From Pseudomonadota bacterium (lineage in GTDB: Bacteria > Pseudomonadota > Gammaproteobacteria > Tethybacterales > Persebacteraceae), in NCBI GenBank assembly GCA_022600535.1, contig JAHZKE010000042.1, positions 10,649-74,648 of the forward strand: DNA of 64,000 nucleotides, in the 5' to 3' direction. Shown in pieces: positions 1,269-40,952 of the stretch (the first letter of the stretch is position 1; each line of letters starts with the position of its first letter). The notes beneath the pieces were generated by a model. The model was not told the origin of the DNA. It made no database searches and saw only the letters and a list, made by a program, of their open reading frames with translations. The position numbers and the translations under genes were made by a program.

Positions 1269-2633
1269 ATGTTACGTAGCCCGCAAGAGATAATAAACGA
1301 GATAATAGAGATAACCAAAGGAAAAAAATATATTTTTCGTGGTGAAAGTAGAGATTATTCTAAATCGGGAGGCAGGCATCTCACCTCTAATTTATATCGG
1401 CAGTTTTATTTATCCAGTAAAAATGAACCACCAATAAAAAATGAATATTTTTCTATCCTAAAGATAGAAAAAAATATTATAAGTAAAGCCAAAAAACACT
1501 TGCCTTATGGTGCAAGTAATATAGATATATTGACACAGTTACAACATTATGGTGGTAAAACAGCATTAATTGACTTTACCTATAATTTACATATTGCTTT
1601 ATTTTTTGCTTGTGAAAAAAATCTCAGTGAAGATGGGAAATTATTTATGTTTCCAAGTGAAAAATTTCCTGAGAAAAATGATATAGAAGTCAAAAAAAAT
1701 AATGAACTTATACCAATAGAACTTATTGAACAAGATATTTTAATGATGCCTACAGGAAAAGACCCGCGAATTATATTCCAAAGTAGTGTATTTGTACATG
1801 CACACAAAGGATACATAGAAGAAACGGCAAAATTGGAAATTATCTCTTCTAAAGAAAAAGACGACATACTAACTTATTTACGAAAAAATTTTAATATCCA
1901 TGCAGACACTATTTATAATGATATGTATGGTTTTATAAAAAATTTAGAGAACCATTCAACTGCAGAAATAGAATTTTATAGAGGGATAGCTTGGAATGAT
2001 CAAAAAAATTATGTGAACGCAATAAAATCTTATGATGAAGCCATTAAAATAAATCCGCAATTTACAGAAGCATACAATAACCGGGGCAATGCTAAATTTT
2101 CTTTAGGCGATACAACAGGAGCTTTATTAGATTATGATAAAGCCATTGAAATAAATCCGCAACTTGCAAAACCATACAATAACCGAGGCAATGCTAAAAT
2201 AAATTCGGGCGATACAACAGCAGCTTTATTAGATTATGATAAAGCCATTAGAATAAATCCGCAAAATGCAGAAGCATACAATAACCGGGGCATTGCTAAA
2301 ATAAATTCGGGCGATACAACAGGAGCTTTATTAGATTATGATAAAGCCATTGAAATAAATCCGCAATATGCAGACGCATACTATAACCGGGGCAATGCTA
2401 AAATAAATTCGGGCGATACAACAGCAACTTTATTAGATTATGATAAAGCCATTGAAATAAATCCGCAATTTGCAGAAGCATACTACAACAGAGGCATTGC
2501 TAAAATAAAATCGGGCGATACAAAGAGTGCAGAACAAGATTGGCTGCAAGCAAAAAAATTAGCCAAAGAGCAAAATCTTAACGATGACATTGAGAAGATT
2601 AATGAAGCATTACAACAACTTGAAAATAAATAG
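1269..2633 (+). CDS. FRG-domain protein with C-terminal tetratricopeptide (TPR) repeat array
   Basis: The N-terminal ~240 aa carry FRG-domain motifs: 'YIFRGESRDY...LTSNLYR', 'LQHYGGKTALIDFTYNLHIALFFA' and 'RIIFQSSVFV'. The C-terminal ~210 aa are six 34-aa TPR units (AYNNRGNAK...DYDKAIEINPQ). The gene is strongly AT-rich compared with its neighbours. Confidence 0.8.
   Translation: MLRSPQEIINEIIEITKGKKYIFRGESRDYSKSGGRHLTSNLYRQFYLSSKNEPPIKNEYFSILKIEKNIISKAKKHLPYGASNIDILTQLQHYGGKTALIDFTYNLHIALFFACEKNLSEDGKLFMFPSEKFPEKNDIEVKKNNELIPIELIEQDILMMPTGKDPRIIFQSSVFVHAHKGYIEETAKLEIISSKEKDDILTYLRKNFNIHADTIYNDMYGFIKNLENHSTAEIEFYRGIAWNDQKNYVNAIKSYDEAIKINPQFTEAYNNRGNAKFSLGDTTGALLDYDKAIEINPQLAKPYNNRGNAKINSGDTTAALLDYDKAIRINPQNAEAYNNRGIAKINSGDTTGALLDYDKAIEINPQYADAYYNRGNAKINSGDTTATLLDYDKAIEINPQFAEAYYNRGIAKIKSGDTKSAEQDWLQAKKLAKEQNLNDDIEKINEALQQLENK
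2041..2550 (+). repeat. Tandem 102-bp near-identical repeats (about 5 copies) encoding the TPR units
   Basis: A unit '...aaataaatccgcaa-[t/c/a]ttgcagaagcatacaataaccggggcaatgctaaaataaattcgggcgatacaacaggagctttattagattatgataaagccattgaaat' recurs with a 102-nt period at about 2050/2152/2254/2356/2458, with only a few substitutions. Confidence 0.8.
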
Positions 2634-30747: not shown

Positions 30748-31209
30748 TTAATGGGTGCCGGTGGCGGCTAAGATGATTTTCCAATCTTTAGGGGTCAATG
30801 GCAAGATAGATAAGCGATTACCGCGTGCCAATAATTTCATTTCGGCTAATTTGGGCATTGCCCGCATTGCCGCTAACGTCAGTGGTTGGGGGAATTTTTC
30901 AACAAAAGCAATCTGCACACAATGCCAACGCGGTTTTTCCGCGGTGGCGCTGGCATCGTAATAGTCACTTTTCGGATCAAATTGAGTAACATCGGCAATT
31001 GCCGTAGCGCTAACACGCGCCCGCCCGACTGCTGCCGGCACGGCACAACTGGAATGATAAAAGATGATTTCATCTCCCACTTGCATATCGTTACACATAA
31101 AATTACGCGCTTGGTAGTTACGGATACCGTCCCACCACTCGCAGCCGTCACGCGCTAAATCGTCAATAGAATAGGCGACTGGTTCAGATTTAAATAGCCA
31201 GTATGCCAT
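30748..31209 (-). CDS. EVE-domain (PUA-like, DUF55) protein
   Basis: 'MAYWLFKSEPVAYSIDDL' N-terminus and a beta-barrel pattern ('GDEIIFYHS', 'VGRARV'). Matches the EVE/Thyn1 family. Confidence 0.75.
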   Translation of the reverse strand: MAYWLFKSEPVAYSIDDLARDGCEWWDGIRNYQARNFMCNDMQVGDEIIFYHSSCAVPAAVGRARVSATAIADVTQFDPKSDYYDASATAEKPRWHCVQIAFVEKFPQPLTLAAMRAMPKLAEMKLLARGNRLSILPLTPKDWKIILAATGTH

Positions 31210-31223
31210 CTCTCAAAAGGAGA

Positions 31224-33305
31224 TTACTCCACGTCACGCATCGTTAAGCGCACTCTACCTTCTTCGGATTTAATGACTTTAACGCGCACTTCCTGACCTT
31301 CGCTCAAATAATCGGAAACATGATTAATGCGCTCGCGTGAAATTTGCGAAATATGTAAGAGACCATCACGCCCGGGCAAGATGTTAATAATTGCGCCGAC
31401 ATTTTCTAATACTTTTTCAACCGTGCCGACATAAACAACACCGACTTCTACATCAACGGTAATGTTTTCAATTTGCTTTTTCGCCCGCTCACAGCTTTCT
31501 AAACTTTTGCCCATAATGGTAATTAAACCGTTATCGTCAATGTCTATCTTTGTTTGTGTACTGTCGGTCAAATTGCGAATCACCGAACCGCCTTTGCCAA
31601 TGACTTCGCGAATTTTATCAACGCTGATTTTCATGGTAATACGGCGCGGCGCATACGGAGAAATATCTTTACGCGGCTCAGAAACTGCCTCGTTCATGAC
31701 TTTCAATATCCCCAAGCGTCCCTCTTTTGCTTGCGCGAGTGCATTCCGCATAATCTCTTCGCTGATGCTATCAATTTTCAAATCCATCTGCAATGCGGTA
31801 ATCCCTTTTTCGCTACCGGCAACTTTAAAGTCCATATCCCCTAAGTGATCTTCATCACCCAAAATATCGGATAACACGGCATATTTTTCACCTTCTTTAA
31901 TCAAGCCCATGGCAATCCCGGAAACTGCCGAGCCCAATGGCACGCCTGCATCCATTAGCGCCAATGAGCCACCGCATACCGATGCCATAGAACTAGAACC
32001 ATTGGATTCGGTAATTTCGGAAACCACACGCAAGGCAAAGCCAAAATCTTCCCGCGCAGGAATCACTGCGGCTAAACCGCGTTTTGCTAATCTGCCGTGA
32101 CCAATTTCACGCCGCTTCGGCGAGCCGCCACGTCCGGTTTCACCCGTTGCAAACGGAGGAAAATTATAATGCATCATAAAGGCATCAAACTGTTCGCCGG
32201 CGAGTGCATCAATTTTTTGATCATCGCGATCGCCACCTAATGTGGCAGAAACTAATGCTTGTGTTTCCCCGCGGGTGAACAAAGCAGAACCGTGCACACG
32301 TGGCAATAAACCGGTGCGAATGGTAATGGGACGTACGGTTTTAGTGTCGCGTCCGTCAATGCGCGGGGCGCCCGATAAAATGCGATTGCGGACAATATTT
32401 GCCTCACACTTTTTAAATACCGATGAAATCAAATTTTCTTCTAACGAGGTTGTTTCCGGGGTCACCACTGCCGCTGCTGATTCTTTGCGAGCTGCCGACA
32501 ATGCTTGGGTCCGTTCTTGTTTATCGCTAATATTATAAGCGGACTCCAATAACGGCGTTGCGGTGGCTTGCAATTTACTTTTTTTACTTTCGTCTAATAC
32601 CGGGGCTTGCCAGTCCCAACGGGGTTTGGCAATGGCTTCGTTCATTTGTTTAATTGCGGCAATGGTCATTTGCATATCTTCATGCCCTGCCATCACGGCG
32701 GCAAGCATTTGTTCTTCCGACAGTTGATTGGCTTCTGATTCCACCATCAAAACACCTTGCTCGGTGCCGGCAACCACTAAATTTAAATCAGATTTTTCTA
32801 ATTCTTCGGTGGTGGGCAAAACAATGAGTTCGCCTTCTACCATGGCAACGCGGGCAGCACCAATAGGACCGTTAAACGGAATACCCGAAATAGAGAGTGC
32901 AGCGGAGGCGGCAATCATTGCCGGAATATCGGAATCCATTGACGGATTGTAGGATAACACCGTGATAAACATTTGCGTTTCGTTGTAGTAAAAATCGGGA
33001 AATAAAGGACGCAAAGAACGATCAATCAAACGGGCTGTTAAAATTTCCTTTTCGGTGGGACGCCCTTCACGGCGAAAAAAGCCACCCGGAATACGTCCCG
33101 CTGCATAAAATTTTTCTTGATAATCTACCGTTAACGGTAAAAATGAAGCATTGGGAAGCGCTTCCTGTCTGCCGGTAACTGCCGCCATCACCACGGTTTC
33201 ATCAACAGTGCAAATAACGGTGGCGGCAGCTTGTCTGCCAATTTCGCCGAATTCTAATGTAACTTCATGCTTACCGAGGGGAAAAGATTGTTTAATATGT
33301 GTCAT
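31224..33305 (-). CDS. pnp: Polyribonucleotide nucleotidyltransferase (PNPase)
   Basis: 693 aa. Two RNase PH domains plus KH and S1 at the C-terminus ('GKGGSVIR', 'GTVEKV...'). The N-terminus aligns with E. coli Pnp. Confidence 0.95.
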
Positions 33306-33368
33306 AATTTTTGCTTTCTAAAAAGAAAGAGTCAGAAAAGGAAATTGTGCTCAACGAGAAAGGCGCGC

Positions 33369-33653
33369 TTACTTACGCAAGCCAAGCGATGCCAGTGTTT
33401 TACCGTGTAATTCGGGATCCGTACGTTTAATGTATTTGAGTAATTTACGTCGTTTGCTCACCATGCCGATCAAACCGCGCCGTGAGTGTTTATCGTTACG
33501 ATTGCTCCCCATGTGACCCGTCAAATGAAGGATGCGCGCTGTTAAAGCGGCTATTTGAACTGGGGCAGAACCGACATCGGTCTCGTGCTGCTTCAGTGAT
33601 GTTTTGATTTCGGCTAACTCTACCGTAGTGTGTTGTTGCTTCTTTGCTTTCAT
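33369..33653 (-). CDS. rpsO: 30S ribosomal protein S15
   Basis: 'HSRRGLIGMVSKRRKLLKYIKR' is the S15 signature. Classic rpsO-pnp synteny. Confidence 0.9.
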   Translation of the reverse strand: MKAKKQQHTTVELAEIKTSLKQHETDVGSAPVQIAALTARILHLTGHMGSNRNDKHSRRGLIGMVSKRRKLLKYIKRTDPELHGKTLASLGLRK

Positions 33654-33929
33654 ATATCCAACAGGTAAAAAGTCGTCATTATACTATATCCGCTTGCTCA
33701 TTTTGTATTTTGTACTGCAACATAATACTATTTAATGTTTTTTCAGGAATACGACGACTAATTGCGTATCATTAACAATGGATTTATGTAAAATGCTCAT
33801 TTTGAATCACGTATGAAAATATTCCCATTTCTTTTCCTTGTTGCCAATCTTACCGTGGCGGGCGGGGGCACTGCTGACGGTACCCATCGCCATCAGAATC
33901 GCCATTAAAAAACCAAAGAAAGTATCACC

Positions 33930-34841
33930 ATGGCAATCAACACAAAAATGCAAGCACGCGACTGGGGGATGCTGCTACTGTTATCTTTACTCTGGGGCGG
34001 TTCGTTTTTCTTTGTCGGGGTGGCAGTGGCAGAATTACCGCCATTCACCATTGTGCTGTGTCGCGTTGGTTTTGCTGCTGCCACTTTATGGTTAATTATG
34101 TTTATTATCCGTGTCCCACTGCCCAAAACGCCGGCACTGTGGGGCAGTTTTTTTATTATGGGCTTCACCAAAAACGCCCTGCCGTTTTCACTTATTGTCT
34201 GGGGGCAGACACAAATTTCCTCCGGGTTGGCATCTATTCTCAATGCCACAACGCCGCTATTTACCGTGTTGATCGCTGCTGTTTTGCTTGCCGATGAACG
34301 CCTGAATGCGGGCAAAGCCATTGGTGTTGCACTCGGCATTGGCGGCACCATCGTGATGATTGGTCCCGCTGCACTGCAAGGGGCAAGCGATAATGCACTG
34401 GCAATGTTAGCAGTATTGGGGGCAACGCTAAGCTATGCCTTTGCCTCAATTTATGGCAGGCGTTTTCATGCCGACGGCATGCCCCCGATTACTGCAGCAG
34501 CCGGACAGGTAACCTGTGCCACTATTTTACTGACCCCGCTTACCCTCATCGTTGATACGCCGTGGCAGTTGCCACTTCCGTCTGCTGCCGTTATACTGGC
34601 AGTGCTGGGGCTGGCAATACTTTCCACCGCACTGGCTTATGTTTTATATTTTCGTATTCTTGCCTCATCCGGCGCGGTTAACATCTCGCTGGTGACTTTT
34701 TTGGTGCCAATATCGGCTATTTTTCTTGGTATCGTTATATTAGACGAAACATTAGAACTCAGCCATATTGCAGGCATGGTACTGATTGCCACCGGACTTA
34801 TCGCCATGGACGGCAGAGTATGGCGGGCAATCAAATCTTAA
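33930..34841 (+). CDS. DMT-superfamily transporter (EamA/RhaT family, 10 TM)
   Basis: 303 aa with two EamA-domain halves ('LWGGSFFFVGVAVAELPP...' and '...ILSTALAYVLYFRIL'). Confidence 0.8.
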   Translation: MAINTKMQARDWGMLLLLSLLWGGSFFFVGVAVAELPPFTIVLCRVGFAAATLWLIMFIIRVPLPKTPALWGSFFIMGFTKNALPFSLIVWGQTQISSGLASILNATTPLFTVLIAAVLLADERLNAGKAIGVALGIGGTIVMIGPAALQGASDNALAMLAVLGATLSYAFASIYGRRFHADGMPPITAAAGQVTCATILLTPLTLIVDTPWQLPLPSAAVILAVLGLAILSTALAYVLYFRILASSGAVNISLVTFLVPISAIFLGIVILDETLELSHIAGMVLIATGLIAMDGRVWRAIKS

Positions 34842-34895
34842 CCTGCCGATAACGGCAAAGTTATCAATATCAATATTCAAAAATAAAATTAAAAA

Positions 34896-34971
34896 TGGTG
34901 GGTCAGGAGGGTTTCGAACCCCCAACCAAAGGATTATGAGTCCTCTGCTCTAACCGTTGAGCTACTGACCC
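34896..34971 (-). tRNA. tRNA with CAU anticodon (Ile2/lysidine-type or elongator Met), ileX-like position downstream of rpoD
   Basis: The reverse complement folds as GGGTCAG/CTGACCC acceptor, anticodon loop CTCATAA, T-loop GTTCGAAA and encoded CCA. Its location immediately 3' of rpoD mirrors E. coli ileX. Confidence 0.85.
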
Positions 34972-34979
34972 CTATAAAT

Positions 34980-37442
34980 TTATTCGGTTTCGCCCAAACG
35001 TTGTTTTAAGGTGCGCTCGCGTTTGGAACTGCGCATTTTGCGTAATGCTTTTGCTTCAATTTGGCGAATGCGCTCGCGAGTAACTTCAAATTGCCGCCCG
35101 ACTTCCTCTAAGGTGTAATCGTTGTCAATATCAATGCCAAAACGCATACGCAACACTTTCGCCTCGCGTGGTGCCAATTCGCTGTCAAAAAAGTCGCGCA
35201 AGAATATTTTTTTATCTTTGCTAATGACATTTTCTAGCGGGTCAATCACTGACGGGTCTTCAATAAAGTCGCCGGTGGTGGCATCGTCATCGCCTACCGG
35301 GGTTTCCATAGAAGTCGGTTCTTTGGCAATTTTTAGAATGCGCCGCACTTTATCTAACGGCAATTCCATGGCTTCACTCAATTCTTCCGGTGTCGGATCC
35401 ACACCATTTTTTTGCATCAGCTGCCGTGAGACACGGTTGAGTTTATTGATGGTTTCAATCATGTGTACGGGAATACGAATCGTGCGCCCTTGATCGGCAA
35501 TGGCACGCGTAATTGCCTGCCGAATCCACCATGTCGCATAGGTTGAAAATTTAAAGCCGCGGCGATATTGAAATTTATCCACCGCTTTCATCAAACCGAT
35601 ATTTCCTTCTTGAATTAGATCTAAGAAATGTAGTCCGCGATTGGTGTATTTTTTAGCAATTGAAATGACTAAGCGCAAATTAGAACGCACCATTTCGGTC
35701 TTGGCTTGCATCACTTCGCGCTCACATGAACGCAACTCTTTTTCCACTTCGTTCAAGGTTGCCATGTCCATTTTATTGGCTTTTAAAATGACGATACAAC
35801 GCGATTGCCATTCGACAATTTCGGGAATATATTGATCGGCTGCGGTATTATATTTTTGCGAGGAGATGGATTTAAACCAATCAAGGTTGGTTTCATTTCC
35901 CGGATACAAGCGCAAAAAGTCGGATTTTTTCATCCCCAATTTACGCACACATGCATCACGCACACGGGATTCGATATTGGCAATTTCAAGGGCAATTTCG
36001 TGTACTTTATCGGTCAACAATTTGACTTGCTTTCCCGAATAACAAAAACGCGACATAATTTCCGTCATCTGCTGTTCGTATTCTGCACGCGCATTTTCAC
36101 TGCGGCTACGGCTATGCTTCTGATGTACCTCGGCTAATTGTTTCATCAATTTCAATGTTTTTGTCTTTAACTCCGCTCCTTTTAGCCCGGGCGGTGCCGG
36201 CATTTCCCCTTCTTCTGCTGTGCTTTCGGCTTCCACTCCTACCGTTGTTGTTTCCCCTTCTCCCTCAGCATCGACGTTGTCTAACTCTTCTGCTGCAGCG
36301 ACTTGGTTTTTTTCGTTTTTTTTATCTGCACTGGGCCAATAAAAATCACTGGTAATTGACTCAACATTTCCTTCGTCAAAAATGTCATCAATAATATCTT
36401 CTACCGATACTTTTTTGCTTTTAATTTTTTCTGCATCCTGCAAAATCTCTTCCACAATCAACGGGCATTTGGACAACACTTGCATAATGCCACGCAAACC
36501 GTTTTCGGCACGGCGGGCGATGTATTTTTCTTCATCGCGGTTAAGTAAGTGCGATGAACTCATTTCGCGCATATACATCCGCACCGGATCGGTTGTGCGT
36601 GTATTGCCGACAAAGGCGGAAATTGCCGCTTCGGCTTGGTCGTCAATATCGCTTTCACTATGTCCAACAACCGCCGTTTCGCCTCCCAACATCAACTCAT
36701 CGCGGTCAGGGGTTTTTTCATAAATTTTAATCGCCATCTCACGCAAGATATTGGCAATCACTTCAATTGCTTCGTCGACATCCATCATTTCATCGGGTAG
36801 ATGATCGTTAATGACCGAGTGCGTGACATAACCGTATTTACGCGCATGGTGGAAAATTTCGTACAAACGGGAAATGCTACTTTGCTTATTTGCCTCGCTT
36901 TGTTCACTGTCTGGTGCCGCATTGCTGGCAGATACTTTGGAAAAAGAGAGTTTTCTTTTTACTTTTTCTTCCAACTCGTCATGCATTTTATTGACTGCTG
37001 CGACTTTACGGTCGGCAGTAAAACGTTGCTGTTTACGTTTTCTCGCTTTTTTCGGTTTGGCTAATACGGGTTGTCTGGGGGCGGGTGCTACTTCGGCGCT
37101 TACTACGGCGGGTTTAGCAACGGCTTTGCTTGCTACCTTTGTTAACGGTTTTTTCGGTGCAGTTTTTTTAGCAACCACCGCTTTTTTCGGCGCAACTGCC
37201 TTAGTCGCTTTAGCAACAGCTTTGCTTGCTACCTTTGCTAACGGTTTTTTCGGTGCAGTTTTTTTAGCAGGCGCAACTGCCTTAGCCGCTACTTTAGTGC
37301 CCGCTTTAGCAACAGGTTTTGCTAATTTCTTCGTTGCAACTTTTTTAACTGCTGGTGTTTTTTTAGGCGCAGATTTTGCCGATGAATTGGCTTTTTTTGC
37401 TGCTGATTTGGCGACTGGTGCCTTCGTTTTTTTATCTGCCAT
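34980..37442 (-). CDS. rpoD: RNA polymerase sigma-70 (RpoD) with ~140-aa Lys/Ala/Pro-rich histone H1-like N-terminal extension
   Basis: Regions 1.1-4.2 are all present (for example '[44 protein letters not shown]' and '[28 protein letters not shown]'). The N-terminus is '[39 protein letters not shown]...' with KAP/AKK repeats. Total length is 820 aa. Confidence 0.95.
37113..37300. repeat. 96-nt tandem repeat (2 copies) encoding the KAP-rich repeats of the RpoD N-terminal extension
   Basis: 'tagcaac[g/a]gctttgcttgctacctttg[t/c]taacggttttttcggtgcagtttttttagca' occurs at 37113 and again at 37209. Confidence 0.6.
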
Positions 37443-37475
37443 ATAACTTGTTATTATACCACATTTTAATGATTT

Positions 37476-38669
37476 TTAGAGAGAATTATCGTCTAATTTC
37501 TTATTAATTTCAATCTCAATGCGTTCGCCTACTTTTGCGGTTGTTTCGCCATACCAATCACCCGCTTGTGCCCGGGCATCGCCGCTGGTAGAAATTCGGG
37601 CGATAATTTGATATTCACCATCGTTGATATTATCGCTGATTTTTGCATTTGGCGACATCGCTGCACTGTCATCCAATACACTAACAATAGGCAACTGTCC
37701 CACCGTATAACGTTTTGCTGCTACGGGGATTTTTTGCCCCGCCACACGCGCAAAAATAAATACCGTCATCTCCGCTCCCAGTTGTTGCGGTAACGCTGCG
37801 GCTAAACTTACGGCGACGGTAATGGCTTTTTCATTGTCTGTTACATTGTCTGTTTCGTTACCCGCTATTGCGATTTGACTTTGCAATTCGGACAAAGCGG
37901 TAGCAACTTGTGATTGCATTGCACTATCGGTTAATAGCGGATACAAGCGTTGCCAATAATTTTGCGCAGCTTGTAATTCGCCTTTTTCTCGCGCCCGTAC
38001 GCCGGCAATCCACAATACTAAGGGTGCATCAGCAACAGTTTGCAATGCTTCTGCCAATACTTCATCTAATTGCGGGTCATCCGCCCACACCAATGCTTCT
38101 AAGTGGGCAACTAATAATTGCGGCGCATCCGCCACCTGCCGCGCCCGCTGATAATATTCTGCTGCTTCTATATAACGGCTTTGCGCCATTAAACTTTTTG
38201 CCATCAATACCAATGCCTCACCATTGTTGGGGTTATCTTGCAACCATTGTTCTAATTTTTCACTCATTTGCGCAACATCGGCGACGTTGGTCGGTGCTGT
38301 TGGCGCTTGGGTATGTGTCGGCGACCCCAACAATAAATACAACCCGGTCGCCGCCGCCGTCATAAATAGTGCAATAACAATACTGCTACTTGTGCTACCA
38401 ATCCGCACTAATGTCGGTGCAGGTGCTGTCGCGCTGTTATCTGCCAACAGTTGTGTTGCAATTTCTTCTTTATAATTTTCAATATCACCGGTAGTTAAAG
38501 TTTGATTACTATTGGCTTGTTGCAAATCGTGCAACTGTGCTTTAACTGCGGCAATATTGTGTTGTTGCCGTGTCAGCGCATTGCTGTGCCTTGCCGAATG
38601 GTGCCAAAATGCCCAACATAAGCACCCTACCGTGCCCAATAAAATTAACAGCGCCGATACAATAAACAT
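37476..38669 (-). CDS. TPR-containing membrane-anchored protein, CcmI/CycH-like (c-type cytochrome biogenesis), tentative
   Basis: An N-terminal TM helix, a long helical TPR-like region ('AEYYQRARQ', 'AQNYWQRL') and a C-terminal beta-rich domain. The architecture resembles CcmI. No ccm partners are nearby. Confidence 0.4.
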   Translation of the reverse strand: MFIVSALLILLGTVGCLCWAFWHHSARHSNALTRQQHNIAAVKAQLHDLQQANSNQTLTTGDIENYKEEIATQLLADNSATAPAPTLVRIGSTSSSIVIALFMTAAATGLYLLLGSPTHTQAPTAPTNVADVAQMSEKLEQWLQDNPNNGEALVLMAKSLMAQSRYIEAAEYYQRARQVADAPQLLVAHLEALVWADDPQLDEVLAEALQTVADAPLVLWIAGVRAREKGELQAAQNYWQRLYPLLTDSAMQSQVATALSELQSQIAIAGNETDNVTDNEKAITVAVSLAAALPQQLGAEMTVFIFARVAGQKIPVAAKRYTVGQLPIVSVLDDSAAMSPNAKISDNINDGEYQIIARISTSGDARAQAGDWYGETTAKVGERIEIEINKKLDDNSL

Positions 38670-38699
38670 AGCGGTATTTTACACTGTACCGCAATGTCG

Positions 38700-39728
38700 C
38701 TACGCTGTTGTTAGACATTGGGCGATATTATCTACCAACTGTTGCATCATTGTAAAATACAATTCCGCCCCTGCGGGCAGACGACTCCCCAATGGATCTA
38801 ACACTCCGCGGTGCATTTCTTTGGTGGCAATTGTGTTGACGATTTTGTCGGGAAATTGCGGTTCGCTAAAAATACAGCGCGCGCCTTGCTCTTGAATTTG
38901 CTGACGCAATGCCAATAAATGTTTGGCAGAAGCAGGAATATGCGGTGAGAGCATAATCACCAATGGCGGGCGTAGCTGATAACGCTGTTCTATATATTGA
39001 TACGCATCGTGGAAAACGATATAGGATTTTTTTGCGACTGGTGTTAACGTCTGCATGATTTTTTTATCTAAGGCGTCAAGCCGTGCGGTAGTGACTTCGG
39101 CATTTTGTTGATATAACGTTGCGCGTTGCGGATAACGCTGTATCAATACTTCGGCGATTTTACCGACAATCACTTTTGCATTATCTATATCTAACCATAC
39201 ATGCAGATCTTGCGCCTGTTTATCTTCGTGCTCGTCTTCATGCTTGTGCTCGTCTTCATGCTTGTGCTCATCTTCGTGCTTGTGCTCGTCTTCGTGCTTG
39301 TGTTCGTCTTCATGCTCGTTTTTATGTTCTTCTTCGTGATGTTCATCGTCTTCTTCGTGATGGTCGTGCGTGTGTTCACTGCGTTGCGCTAACCAATGGA
39401 TAGCGGGCTGTTGTCCGACAGCAAACGCCTGCGTGGTATCGGCATTCGCCAATATCGGCGACAACGATTTTTCTAATTGTGGGTGCATATAAAATACAAC
39501 ATCGGCATCGTGTACTGCCTGCACATGTGAAGGTTTTAATACATGACCATGCACGGAGGACTCTTCTGAAAAAATCAACTGCGCCGTTTGGCTCTCGCCT
39601 AACACCGCTTGCACTAAAGAGTGCAACGGTTTAATACTGGCGGCAATTTTCACCTCAGCAGCAACGGCAATGGGGTTGATGAAGGCGGCAAGTAGCAAAG
39701 GGAATAATAGTTGGCTCAATCGGTGCAT
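38700..39728 (-). CDS. znuA: Zinc ABC transporter substrate-binding protein ZnuA with His-rich loop
   Basis: Signal peptide, cluster-9 SBP fold motifs and an internal 'HEDEHKHEDEHKHEDEHKHEDEHKHEDEHEDK' His/acidic loop typical of ZnuA. Divergent from zur-znuCB. Confidence 0.85.
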   Translation of the reverse strand: MHRLSQLLFPLLLAAFINPIAVAAEVKIAASIKPLHSLVQAVLGESQTAQLIFSEESSVHGHVLKPSHVQAVHDADVVFYMHPQLEKSLSPILANADTTQAFAVGQQPAIHWLAQRSEHTHDHHEEDDEHHEEEHKNEHEDEHKHEDEHKHEDEHKHEDEHKHEDEHEDKQAQDLHVWLDIDNAKVIVGKIAEVLIQRYPQRATLYQQNAEVTTARLDALDKKIMQTLTPVAKKSYIVFHDAYQYIEQRYQLRPPLVIMLSPHIPASAKHLLALRQQIQEQGARCIFSEPQFPDKIVNTIATKEMHRGVLDPLGSRLPAGAELYFTMMQQLVDNIAQCLTTA

Positions 39729-39754
39729 GTTACAAAACTCTCATGGCAGTGATA

Positions 39755-39775
39755 AAATGCTATATTATAGCATTT
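39755..39775. promoter_or_regulatory. Zur box-like palindrome in the znuA / zur-znuCB divergent intergenic region
   Basis: 'aaatgctata-t-tatagcattt' is a perfect 10-1-10 palindrome. It resembles the gammaproteobacterial Zur consensus GAAATGTTATANTATAACATTTC. Confidence 0.6.
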
Positions 39776-39789
39776 TTAAATTTAAGCAA

Positions 39790-40227
39790 ATGTCCCTTTC
39801 TAATTCTGAAATTATTGACGCCGTACAACAATTGTGTGCGCGTAAAAAATTACGCTTTACTGCGGTACGCAACAACGTATTGCGCTTATTGCTGGCAGAA
39901 AAATCGCCCTGTAAAGCGTATACTTTACTTGCGCGCTTGCAAAGTAATAAAACACAACCCACTGCCATTTATCGCGCTTTGGATTTTTTATTACAACATG
40001 GTTTTGCTCATAAAATTCATTCGCAAAACAGCTACCTTGCTTGTCGCCATCCGCGCCTGCAACATAACTGCTACTTTATTATCTGCCGCCATTGCGGCTG
40101 TGTGCAAGAGTGTTGCAATGCCAATGCCACCCGCGCGATTGCTCAAACTGCCAAACAAAATAACTTCCAAGCGCCGCAAGCGTTTTTAGAGATTCTTGCC
40201 GACTGTAAAAAATGCGCCAGCCGTTAA
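39790..40227 (+). CDS. zur: Zinc uptake regulator (Fur family)
   Basis: 'FTAVRNNVLRLLLAEKSPCKAYTLLARL' is the DNA-binding helix. C-terminal 'HNCYFIICRHCGCVQEC' provides the CxxC metal sites. It precedes znuC. Start at the internal ATG. Confidence 0.8.
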   Translation: MSLSNSEIIDAVQQLCARKKLRFTAVRNNVLRLLLAEKSPCKAYTLLARLQSNKTQPTAIYRALDFLLQHGFAHKIHSQNSYLACRHPRLQHNCYFIICRHCGCVQECCNANATRAIAQTAKQNNFQAPQAFLEILADCKKCASR

Positions 40228-40952
40228 TTACTGCCGAGGCGATTGGTCTCACCCGCGACAACAGCAAAATATTAGATAATGTTTCGCTCAACATTGCCGC
40301 CGATGATTTTATTACGGTGGTGGGTCCCAATGGGGCGGGTAAAACAACCTTATTAAAATGCTTGCTCGGGTTGATTAAACCGACACAGGGGCGCTTAAAA
40401 CGGCAAGCGGGATTGCGCGTTGGTTATATGCCGCAACGGATTACGGCGGCGCGAACCATGCCGTTGTCCTTGCATTATTTTTTGGCGTTAAATAAAAATA
40501 GTAATGCGCGTGAAATTGCCGAAATTGCCGAACTCACCAATATTACGCAACACCTGCAAACCCCACTGGCAGAGTTGTCGGGCGGCGAAATGCAACGCGC
40601 ACTATTGGCGCGTGCCCTCCTCAACCACCCCACTCTACTCGCACTGGATGAACCGGTGCAAAATTTAGATGTCGGCGGCGAAATTGCTTTTTATCATTTA
40701 TTAGAAAATATCTGCGACACGCGCAAAGTTGCCGTGCTGATGGTCTCGCATGATTTGCATTTTGTCATGCGGCGTAGCCGTCAGGTGGTGTGTTTGTATC
40801 ATCATGTTTGTTGCAGCGGCACACCGCAAGTCGTCAGTCAAGACCCGCAATTTAAAGCGCTGTTTGGCAACGAAATGGCAGAACTGATGACCGTCTATCA
40901 ACACGAACACGACCATCATCACACCGATACAGGAGAAACACCGAATGGCTGA
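40212..40952 (+). CDS. znuC: Zinc ABC transporter ATP-binding protein
   Basis: Walker A 'GPNGAGKTTLLK', ABC signature 'LSGGEMQRALLARAL', Walker B 'LLALDEP' and a His-rich C-terminus. Confidence 0.9.
   Translation: MRQPLITAEAIGLTRDNSKILDNVSLNIAADDFITVVGPNGAGKTTLLKCLLGLIKPTQGRLKRQAGLRVGYMPQRITAARTMPLSLHYFLALNKNSNAREIAEIAELTNITQHLQTPLAELSGGEMQRALLARALLNHPTLLALDEPVQNLDVGGEIAFYHLLENICDTRKVAVLMVSHDLHFVMRRSRQVVCLYHHVCCSGTPQVVSQDPQFKALFGNEMAELMTVYQHEHDHHHTDTGETPNG

Follow-up and report, generated by a model that had tools for sequence, protein, structure and literature searches.

A repeat-bearing polycationic tail encoded at the N-terminus of RpoD in an uncultured Persebacteraceae lineage

Lysine repeats in housekeeping sigma factors are not entirely new: they have been noted in the RpoD of Bordetella pertussis and in HrdB of Streptomyces, and the idea that such repeats accompany GC-rich genomes has been floated (PMC5714199). 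Here we compare these and related systems with the rpoD gene of an uncultured gammaproteobacterium of the Persebacteraceae (Tethybacterales), which encodes a polycationic tail of about 140 residues at the N-terminus of the sigma factor. The gene (34980..37442, minus strand) lies in a stretch of 64,000 nucleotides from contig JAHZKE010000042.1 of assembly GCA_022600535.1; this whole 64-kb stretch is called the window throughout.

Disordered N-terminal extensions on a housekeeping sigma factor are known from Actinobacteria. In Mycobacterium tuberculosis sigma-A depends on its extension to function and to reach a high rate of steady-state transcription (PMC10011835, PMC11888270), and HrdB combines a disordered extension with lysine repeats (PMC5714199). 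The window RpoD shares this feature, but the actinobacterial extensions are not homologous to its tail. Furthermore, the M. tuberculosis extension replaces the canonical region 1.1 (PMC11888270), whereas the window protein keeps a normal region 1.1 and has its tail added ahead of it.

Two further groups of proteins offer a comparison at the level of the tail itself. In actinobacterial topoisomerase I, HupS/HupB and Ku, lysine clusters recur every 3-7 residues between small neutral residues, as they do in the window tail. Removal of the lysine repeats from the C-terminal domain of Streptomyces TopA abolishes DNA binding and lowers processivity, and in some genera the spacers contain P or S (PMC5714199). 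The window repeats differ in being N-terminal rather than C-terminal, in sitting on another host protein and in giving no match to the strict pattern with A/T/N spacers. The second group comprises AlgP and PhaF of Pseudomonas and Hc2 of Chlamydia, which like the window tail are repeat-encoded, disordered polycations rich in Lys, Ala and Pro. The KPAA tail of AlgP and the tail of PhaF bind DNA, AlgP localizes to polyphosphate granules, and the number of algP repeats differs between isolates (PMC11894788), as does that of hctB/Hc2 (PMC2848022). Compared with these proteins, the window tail has no Pfam match and neither KPAA nor pentamer periodicity, it is fused to a sigma factor instead of forming a free nucleoid protein, and its repeat, in contrast to those of algP and hctB, shows no copy-number variation among four assemblies of the locus. 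BpH1 of Bordetella is presumably a further comparable histone-H1-like tail.

The long RpoD proteins of Burkholderiales belong to the same family as the window protein and share its architecture, in which 100-300 aa that are basic and rich in K/A/P/T precede region 1.1. Their lengths reach 803-805 aa in Burkholderia, ~880 aa in Pandoraea, 854 aa in Noviherbaspirillum and 743-759 aa in Pusillimonas, and some members (P0066, P0093) have a precomputed match to the Pfam family HC2. The window tail, by contrast, cannot be aligned with theirs, is richer in valine and comes from an uncultured lineage of 47% GC. We take Ralstonia-like organisms to belong to the group with tailed RpoD as well. The literature that we searched yielded no work on what a proteobacterial RpoD tail does, only a passing mention in PMC5714199 and in the review PMC7398561, and no solved structure of such a tail; a paper on the Burkholderia sigma family does not discuss the N-terminal extension of RpoD, and one on the Bordetella phosphoproteome does not mention RpoD.

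The sigma factor, its tail and the 96-nt repeat

The rpoD coding sequence consists of 820 codons and a stop and is the sole long open reading frame (ORF) across the feature. Its product, identical to MCH9758187.1, contains all sigma-70 regions in order, namely regions 1.1 and 1.2, the non-essential region and regions 2, 3 and 4, with the Pfam families PF03979, PF00140, PF04546, PF04542, PF04539 and PF04545 each above cut-off. The RpoD equivalog of NCBIfam, NF004208, scores 664.3 bits (cut-off 555) and covers residues 173-815, while the remaining sigma models stay under their cut-offs, including MzaA (396 versus 800). Because the RpoD match begins at residue 173 and every Pfam region is present, ~170 extra residues stand ahead of a complete canonical sigma factor of the primary type, and these matches identify the protein as RpoD, probably the housekeeping sigma factor. 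Its core groups with the tailed clade, the best named matches being Ca. Persebacteraceae, Noviherbaspirillum, Pandoraea, Burkholderia and Pusillimonas; the nearest relatives of the locus are metagenome-assembled genomes (MAGs), both Tethybacterales-like ones with contigs of ~1.4-2 Mb and ones of uncultured Gammaproteobacteria.

An earlier reading of the same DNA, here called the original prediction, had described the first ~140 residues as a K/A/V/P-rich, polycationic extension that is missing from canonical sigma-70. All three points hold. The solved RpoD chains, 613-652 aa long, all align only from residue 174 of the window protein onward. Composition, charge, lysine spacing and an AlphaFold2 (AF2) model delimit the tail to residues 1-140 (37023..37442, minus strand), with ~27% Lys, 27% Ala, 12% Val and 10% Pro, a net charge of +41 and a pI of 11.8. 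Counted over residues 1-152 there are 41 K, 41 A, 19 V and 15 P (K, A and P making up ~64%) and only 3 D/E, and the ~180 residues before the alignment point of region 1.1 carry a net charge of +42. The remainder of the protein is acidic, with a net charge of -17 and a pI of 5.5 for residues 153-820, so that the tail shifts the pI of the whole protein from 5.5 to 9.4. Two acidic segments stand out: region 1.1 (36648..36875, minus strand; PF03979 at residues 190-265, E=1.5e-11), with a net charge of -12 and a pI of 4.5 over residues 179-270, and a loop of the non-essential region (residues 355-420) with a net charge of -15. In the E. coli model free sigma-70 is acidic and auto-inhibited for DNA binding.

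The AF2 model, built with 60 homologues, assigns residues 1-140 no secondary structure and predicted local distance difference test (pLDDT) values of 32-41, which predicts that the tail is intrinsically disordered. Lysines cluster at intervals of 3-7 residues and form 23 units of the type K1-2 X2-5. The strict lysine-repeat pattern of Strzalka et al. (2017), K1-2(A/T/N)3-5, has 0 matches in the tail, where the spacers contain V, P, S and L; once P, S, V, L and G are allowed in the spacers, 23 consecutive units result. The likeness to histone H1 and AlgP that had been proposed therefore stands for composition but not for homology. No Pfam family matches residues 1-187 even at E<=10, none falls over the tail in the scan of the whole protein, and neither PF07382 (HC2) nor another H1-like Pfam profile recognizes it; among short motifs in the tail, APKK occurs four times and KPAA and [ST]PKK not at all. 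When other K/A/P-rich proteins were sought in the window, rpoD alone qualified, the remaining weak matches lying in short, incoherent ORFs.

Translation and sliding charge reveal an Arg/Lys patch that closes the tail (residues 129-140; 37023..37058, minus strand), with a sliding charge of +6 over residues 121-135; the relative L002 has a comparable patch, RKRQQQR. It is followed by a helix (residues 143-168; 36939..37016, minus strand) modelled by AF2 at pLDDT 83-90, and in the alignment its motif DRKxAAVxKMxxELxEKVK is kept across the clade, in tail-less members too. Region 1.1 begins at about residue 179 of the model. In this protein a conserved helix links a polycation, predicted to be disordered, with the acidic region 1.1 of the sigma factor.

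Part of the tail is encoded by a tandem repeat. Tandem Repeats Finder (TRF) detects a unit of 96 nt, equal to 32 codons and in frame, in 2.2 copies with 82% matches (37113..37319, minus strand), and a repeat search places the full copies at 37209-37304 and 37113-37208 on the minus strand with 79% identity. In the best pair of in-frame 60-nt windows 58/60 bases are identical, while the region, when shuffled 500 times with its codons preserved, gave a mean of 35.2 and a maximum of 42 of 60. This difference argues for a real and fairly recent duplication instead of a composition bias, and the sequence comparison shows that part of the tail arose through an in-frame duplication of 96 nt. The repeat unit proposed at 37113 and 37209 is in this way confirmed at the DNA level; the proposed pair of 32-aa peptides is confirmed only for a stretch of 20 residues, KKTAPKKPL(A/T)KVASKAVAK, that both copies have in common at 19/20 positions. 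Beyond it the copies diverge, and further upstream a third copy is partial and degenerate.

The possibility that the repeat had been mis-assembled, raised at the outset, can be judged from independent data. Three assemblies of other samples or MAGs (L032, L033 and L034) contain the same 2463-nt gene as the window and differ from it by 5, 1 and 11 single-nucleotide polymorphisms (SNPs), respectively, all of them at gene nt 996 or beyond. All four assemblies agree base for base over the tail-coding nt 1-456 and the 33-nt spacer upstream of the gene, and no variation of the repeat copy number was seen among them. Mis-assembly is accordingly rejected, and the length variation between strains that had been suggested as possible for a repeat-encoded tail is not borne out in this set. 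Moreover, the near-identical core of the repeat spans only ~60 nt, which is below the typical Illumina read length and would make a collapsed or expanded assembly unlikely.

A fifth assembly, L001 (ENA ERZ23491619 scaffold_54), has a gap of 100 N at 2791-2890, over the second repeat copy (window about 37130-37210). The gap explains a database call of RpoD with 668 aa that starts at Met153, and the corresponding cluster member, P0122, was for this reason rejected as a natural tail-less strain variant. Coding repeats at this locus do disturb short-read scaffolding and lead to truncated gene models in public databases, and repeats of this kind are a systematic source of wrong gene models in metagenome assemblies.

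Met153 was also rejected as the main start of the gene. The conserved motif reaches upstream of it, and some homologues have Ile at this position, which marks it as part of the helix and not as a conserved start. Past the upstream stop, no start codon comes before the ATG at 37442; the window RpoD, P0002 and P0003 all begin with MA-x-K(K), and the repeat units of three lineages (96, 45 and 57 nt) are divisible by 3 nt. These sequence comparisons show the tail to be part of the ORF and of a reproducibly assembled gene.

Spread and turnover of the tail among relatives

The extension is not peculiar to this genome. Among the 120 nearest homologues, 115 have 80 or more aa of basic extension ahead of region 1.1 (median 204 aa); these carriers include Burkholderia, Pandoraea, Noviherbaspirillum, Pusillimonas, Alcaligenaceae and Oxalobacteraceae. 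As this search used the tail too and may favour tailed proteins, it was repeated with the core only (residues 181-820) against 1.84 billion cluster representatives, and 122 of the top matches had a region 1.1 whose position could be found. In this set 74 proteins are canonical, with fewer than 40 aa ahead of region 1.1, and 38 have at least 80 aa there. The extension has a net charge of +15 or more in 21 of these 38 and zero or negative charge in 9, including an acidic one made of DSD repeats and two that appear ankyrin-like by eye.

In a neighbour-joining (NJ) tree of the core, which is rough and rooted at the midpoint, tail-less members are scattered among tailed ones, and the window RpoD falls among tailed proteins from MAGs. 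The scatter suggests loss of the tail or, in at least one case (P0106 versus P0086), another truncated gene call. Judged by these homologues, the basic tail is a lineage trait and not a one-off of this genome. The original prediction had considered an extension that is present and identical across the family; the lineage trait is there, but the sequences are unalignable and some relatives are tail-less. Tailed relatives cover a wide range of base composition, the GC content of the locus being 47% in the window and 48%, 54% and 66% elsewhere, and the lysine codons are mostly AAA, with similar usage in the tail (35/41) and in the rest of rpoD (48/53). Tails across 47-66% GC together with this codon choice argue against GC-rich codon bias as the source of the trait.

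The homologues also reveal how the tails differ. Most of the nearest RpoD proteins are seen to carry tails of like charge and composition but unalignable sequence, and comparison of the tail-coding DNA shows that in some relatives these are near-perfect, minisatellite-like arrays. The window has its 96-nt unit in 2.2 copies (82% matches); the tail array of L030 (1.77-Mb contig) has 10.9 copies of a 45-nt unit with 96% matches and that of L031 (1.82-Mb contig) 10.6 copies of a 57-nt unit with 98% matches, while a long array is absent from the tail of the closest relative, L002 (3.9-kb contig). On a broader scale, an exactly duplicated 8-mer occurs in 27 of the 152 tailed proteins and is found at least three times in 7 of them. 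The 96-nt duplication is, to judge from these sequences, private to the window lineage. Unalignable tails built from units of 45, 57 and 96 nt fit an acquired low-complexity expansion, one of the origins first suggested, and the alignments show that the positive charge is kept over a wide clade while the tail sequence is not.

Several homologues differ from the window protein in the kind of extension. P0005 (1082 aa; 2.05-Mb contig) has an extension of ~460 aa with ~8 copies of a unit of ~45 aa (…AAASQTSxAAQxNDKPQEQAAKGVTSNAVRPTRAVLRAAKKAAKL…), which is less lysine-rich than other tails and possibly helical. By eye, P0184 (820 aa) and P0251 (783 aa) carry ankyrin-repeat-like additions before region 1.1, and P0139 and P0151 have long coiled-coil-like segments there. 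From these sequences, RpoD seems quite generally to receive added modules at its N-terminus.

Upstream element and genomic neighbourhood

A candidate extended -10-like element, TGTGGTATAAT, lies upstream of rpoD (37453..37463, minus strand), with its TATAAT ending 10 nt before the ATG at 37442. In the alignment with L002, AAATGTGnTATAATAA is the sole conserved intergenic block. Elements of the form TGnTAnAAT are found upstream of rpoD in L030 and L031 too, and in relatives they stand about 27 to 100 nt before the start. For want of a match to a -35 box the promoter scan missed this element, and its conservation came to light through the alignment alone. The conserved block suggests that rpoD has its own promoter and a nearly leaderless mRNA. 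Downstream, a tRNA-Met gene (CAT; 34896-34971, minus strand) starts 8 nt past the rpoD stop on the same strand and may be co-transcribed with it.

The order of genes over about 31200-40950 comprises zur, znuA, a ccmI/cycH-like gene with tetratricopeptide repeats (TPR), rpoD, tRNA-Met, a gene for an EamA transporter on the opposite strand, rpsO and pnp. Accordingly, rpoD lies outside the classical rpsU-dnaG-rpoD operon. The comparison of gene order took in L001, L030 and L032, and zur/znuA...rpoD...rpsO-pnp is kept in the relative on the 1.77-Mb contig (L030). These surroundings (zur, znuA, the ccmI-like gene, rpsO and pnp) are ordinary chromosomal genes and fit a role as the only or essential housekeeping sigma factor, though they do not prove it.

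Coding repeats occur elsewhere in the window as well. The gene for the zinc-binding protein ZnuA (38700..39728, minus strand), adjoined by zur (39670..40227) and znuC (40212..40952), contains an 18-nt repeat in 4.9 copies with 92% matches at 39228-39316, which encodes a His/Asp/Glu-rich loop (HEDEHK)n. A second gap in L001, at 642-741, apparently corresponds to this repeat, an assignment made by position only, and gives a ZnuA call of 157 aa. A 102-nt tandem repeat in 4.8 copies with 90% matches (2030-2523, plus strand) lies inside the ORF 1269..2633. With 34 aa per unit, the length of a TPR, the product resembles proteins of the TPR type, and its repeats are nearly identical and look very young.

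Tether or by-product: the possible role of the tail

The observations themselves we hold with high confidence: the tail is real, it contains a 96-nt duplication, relatives carry like-charged but unalignable tails, and some of these are young arrays. Taken as one statement with the proposed role, namely that RpoD has a lineage-typical, fast-evolving, disordered polycationic tail that acts as a non-specific tether to polyanions, we regard the reading as somewhat better than even. Replication slippage or unequal recombination would repeatedly make and remake the tail, and selection would act on its charge and disorder rather than on its sequence. By analogy, the tail would lend free sigma and holoenzyme an electrostatic affinity for DNA, that is for the nucleoid, a plausible role that the original prediction had raised; such tethering would help to keep sigma on DNA and to find promoters there, and the tail might contact flanking DNA after region 1.1 has left the DNA channel. 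Support, all of it by analogy, comes from the lysine-repeat tails of actinobacterial TopA and HupB/HupS and of AlgP, which have been shown or proposed to act in a comparable way, and from the functional importance of the unrelated sigma-A extension of M. tuberculosis.

A bolder form of the tether can be put forward tentatively. The polycationic tail may make the primary sigma factor a nucleoid-associated, H1-like binder of DNA or other polyanions and so alter how RNA polymerase finds promoters or is partitioned in the cell. Minisatellite-like growth and shrinkage of the repeats would adjust the charge and length of the tail, and selection would maintain the trait in Burkholderiales-like lineages at any GC content, contrary to the published idea of a link with GC-rich genomes.

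Several results weigh against a tether. The searched literature contains no experimental demonstration of DNA binding by any proteobacterial RpoD tail. Even the closest relatives, with 73% and 70% identity over the whole of RpoD, have tails that do not align with that of the window, which means that the tail sequence is not conserved. Some relatives (P0004, P0012, and P0013 from Ca. Persebacteraceae) have no tail, and P0009 has an acidic DSD (DSDSDN) repeat extension in place of the basic one. Where it is missing the tail must be dispensable, as would also be expected if selection on it were weak or absent. The tail adjoins both the acidic region 1.1 and the -15 loop, so that its charge could be partly neutralised within the molecule. 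Finally, no Shine-Dalgarno sequence is visible before the ATG at 37442.

The most serious competitor is a neutral low-complexity expansion, in which slippage-prone runs of Lys and Ala codons grow and decay at a permissive N-terminus and do nothing specific. We consider this possible, with perhaps one chance in a handful or slightly better. Mutually unalignable tails ranging from about 100 to over 460 aa, lineages in which the tail is absent or, in one case, replaced by an acidic repeat, and young near-perfect arrays that betray mutation-driven growth are what it would lead one to expect. Drift, however, is not expected to hold the sign of a charge, and the charge is positive in 115/120 of the nearest homologues and over 47-66% GC. 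The tail DNA, furthermore, has no substitutions, compared with 1-11 SNPs in the rest of the gene, which in so small a sample is weak evidence.

An unlikely alternative has the tail act inside the protein: as an electrostatic regulator it would fold onto region 1.1 and the acidic loop and tune auto-inhibition, core binding or the ejection of region 1.1, with no DNA binding involved. The opposed charges, +41 in the tail versus -12 in region 1.1 and -15 in the loop, would suit such a contact, as would the conserved helix that links the tail directly to region 1.1. In addition, the M. tuberculosis sigma-A extension alters Vmax and not the apparent promoter affinity (PMC11888270). Yet about +41 set against about -27 leaves a positive excess, a tail length that ranges several-fold among relatives fits a defined contact poorly, and AF2 predicts no confident contact, with pLDDT <50 over the whole tail.

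Still less probable, in our estimation, is that the tail binds polyphosphate or RNA instead of DNA and thereby recruits or sequesters sigma in granules or condensates under starvation, as has been proposed for AlgP. AlgP has a disordered K/P/A-rich tail of similar composition and is found at polyphosphate granules (PMC11894788). The parallel is purely one of analogy. The window tail has no KPAA periodicity, and no ppk or granule gene was seen beside rpoD, a neighbourhood that was not given a dedicated examination for such genes. The tether, the neutral expansion, the intramolecular regulator and the binding of polyphosphate or RNA are inseparable by sequence tools. An artefact, be it a mis-assembled repeat or a true start at Met153 behind an untranslated upstream ORF, is very improbable: one public assembly with an N-gap and a 668-aa gene call, together with the missing Shine-Dalgarno sequence, would agree with it, but the gap accounts for that call, four independent assemblies hold the same 2463-nt gene with a near-identical core of only ~60 nt, and homologues, too, begin with MA-x-K and have the motif upstream of Met153, with Ile at Met153 in some.

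The trait had been noted in passing before, and what is new here is the private, repeat-derived tail of this lineage; the surprise is limited. The comparison nevertheless indicates that independent, very young tandem arrays rebuild the tail in different lineages, and its persistence in a 47% GC genome argues against GC bias as its cause. If the tail truly tethers sigma to DNA, a large bacterial group that includes Burkholderia, Bordetella and uncultured relatives would run its promoter search in a way unlike the E. coli model.

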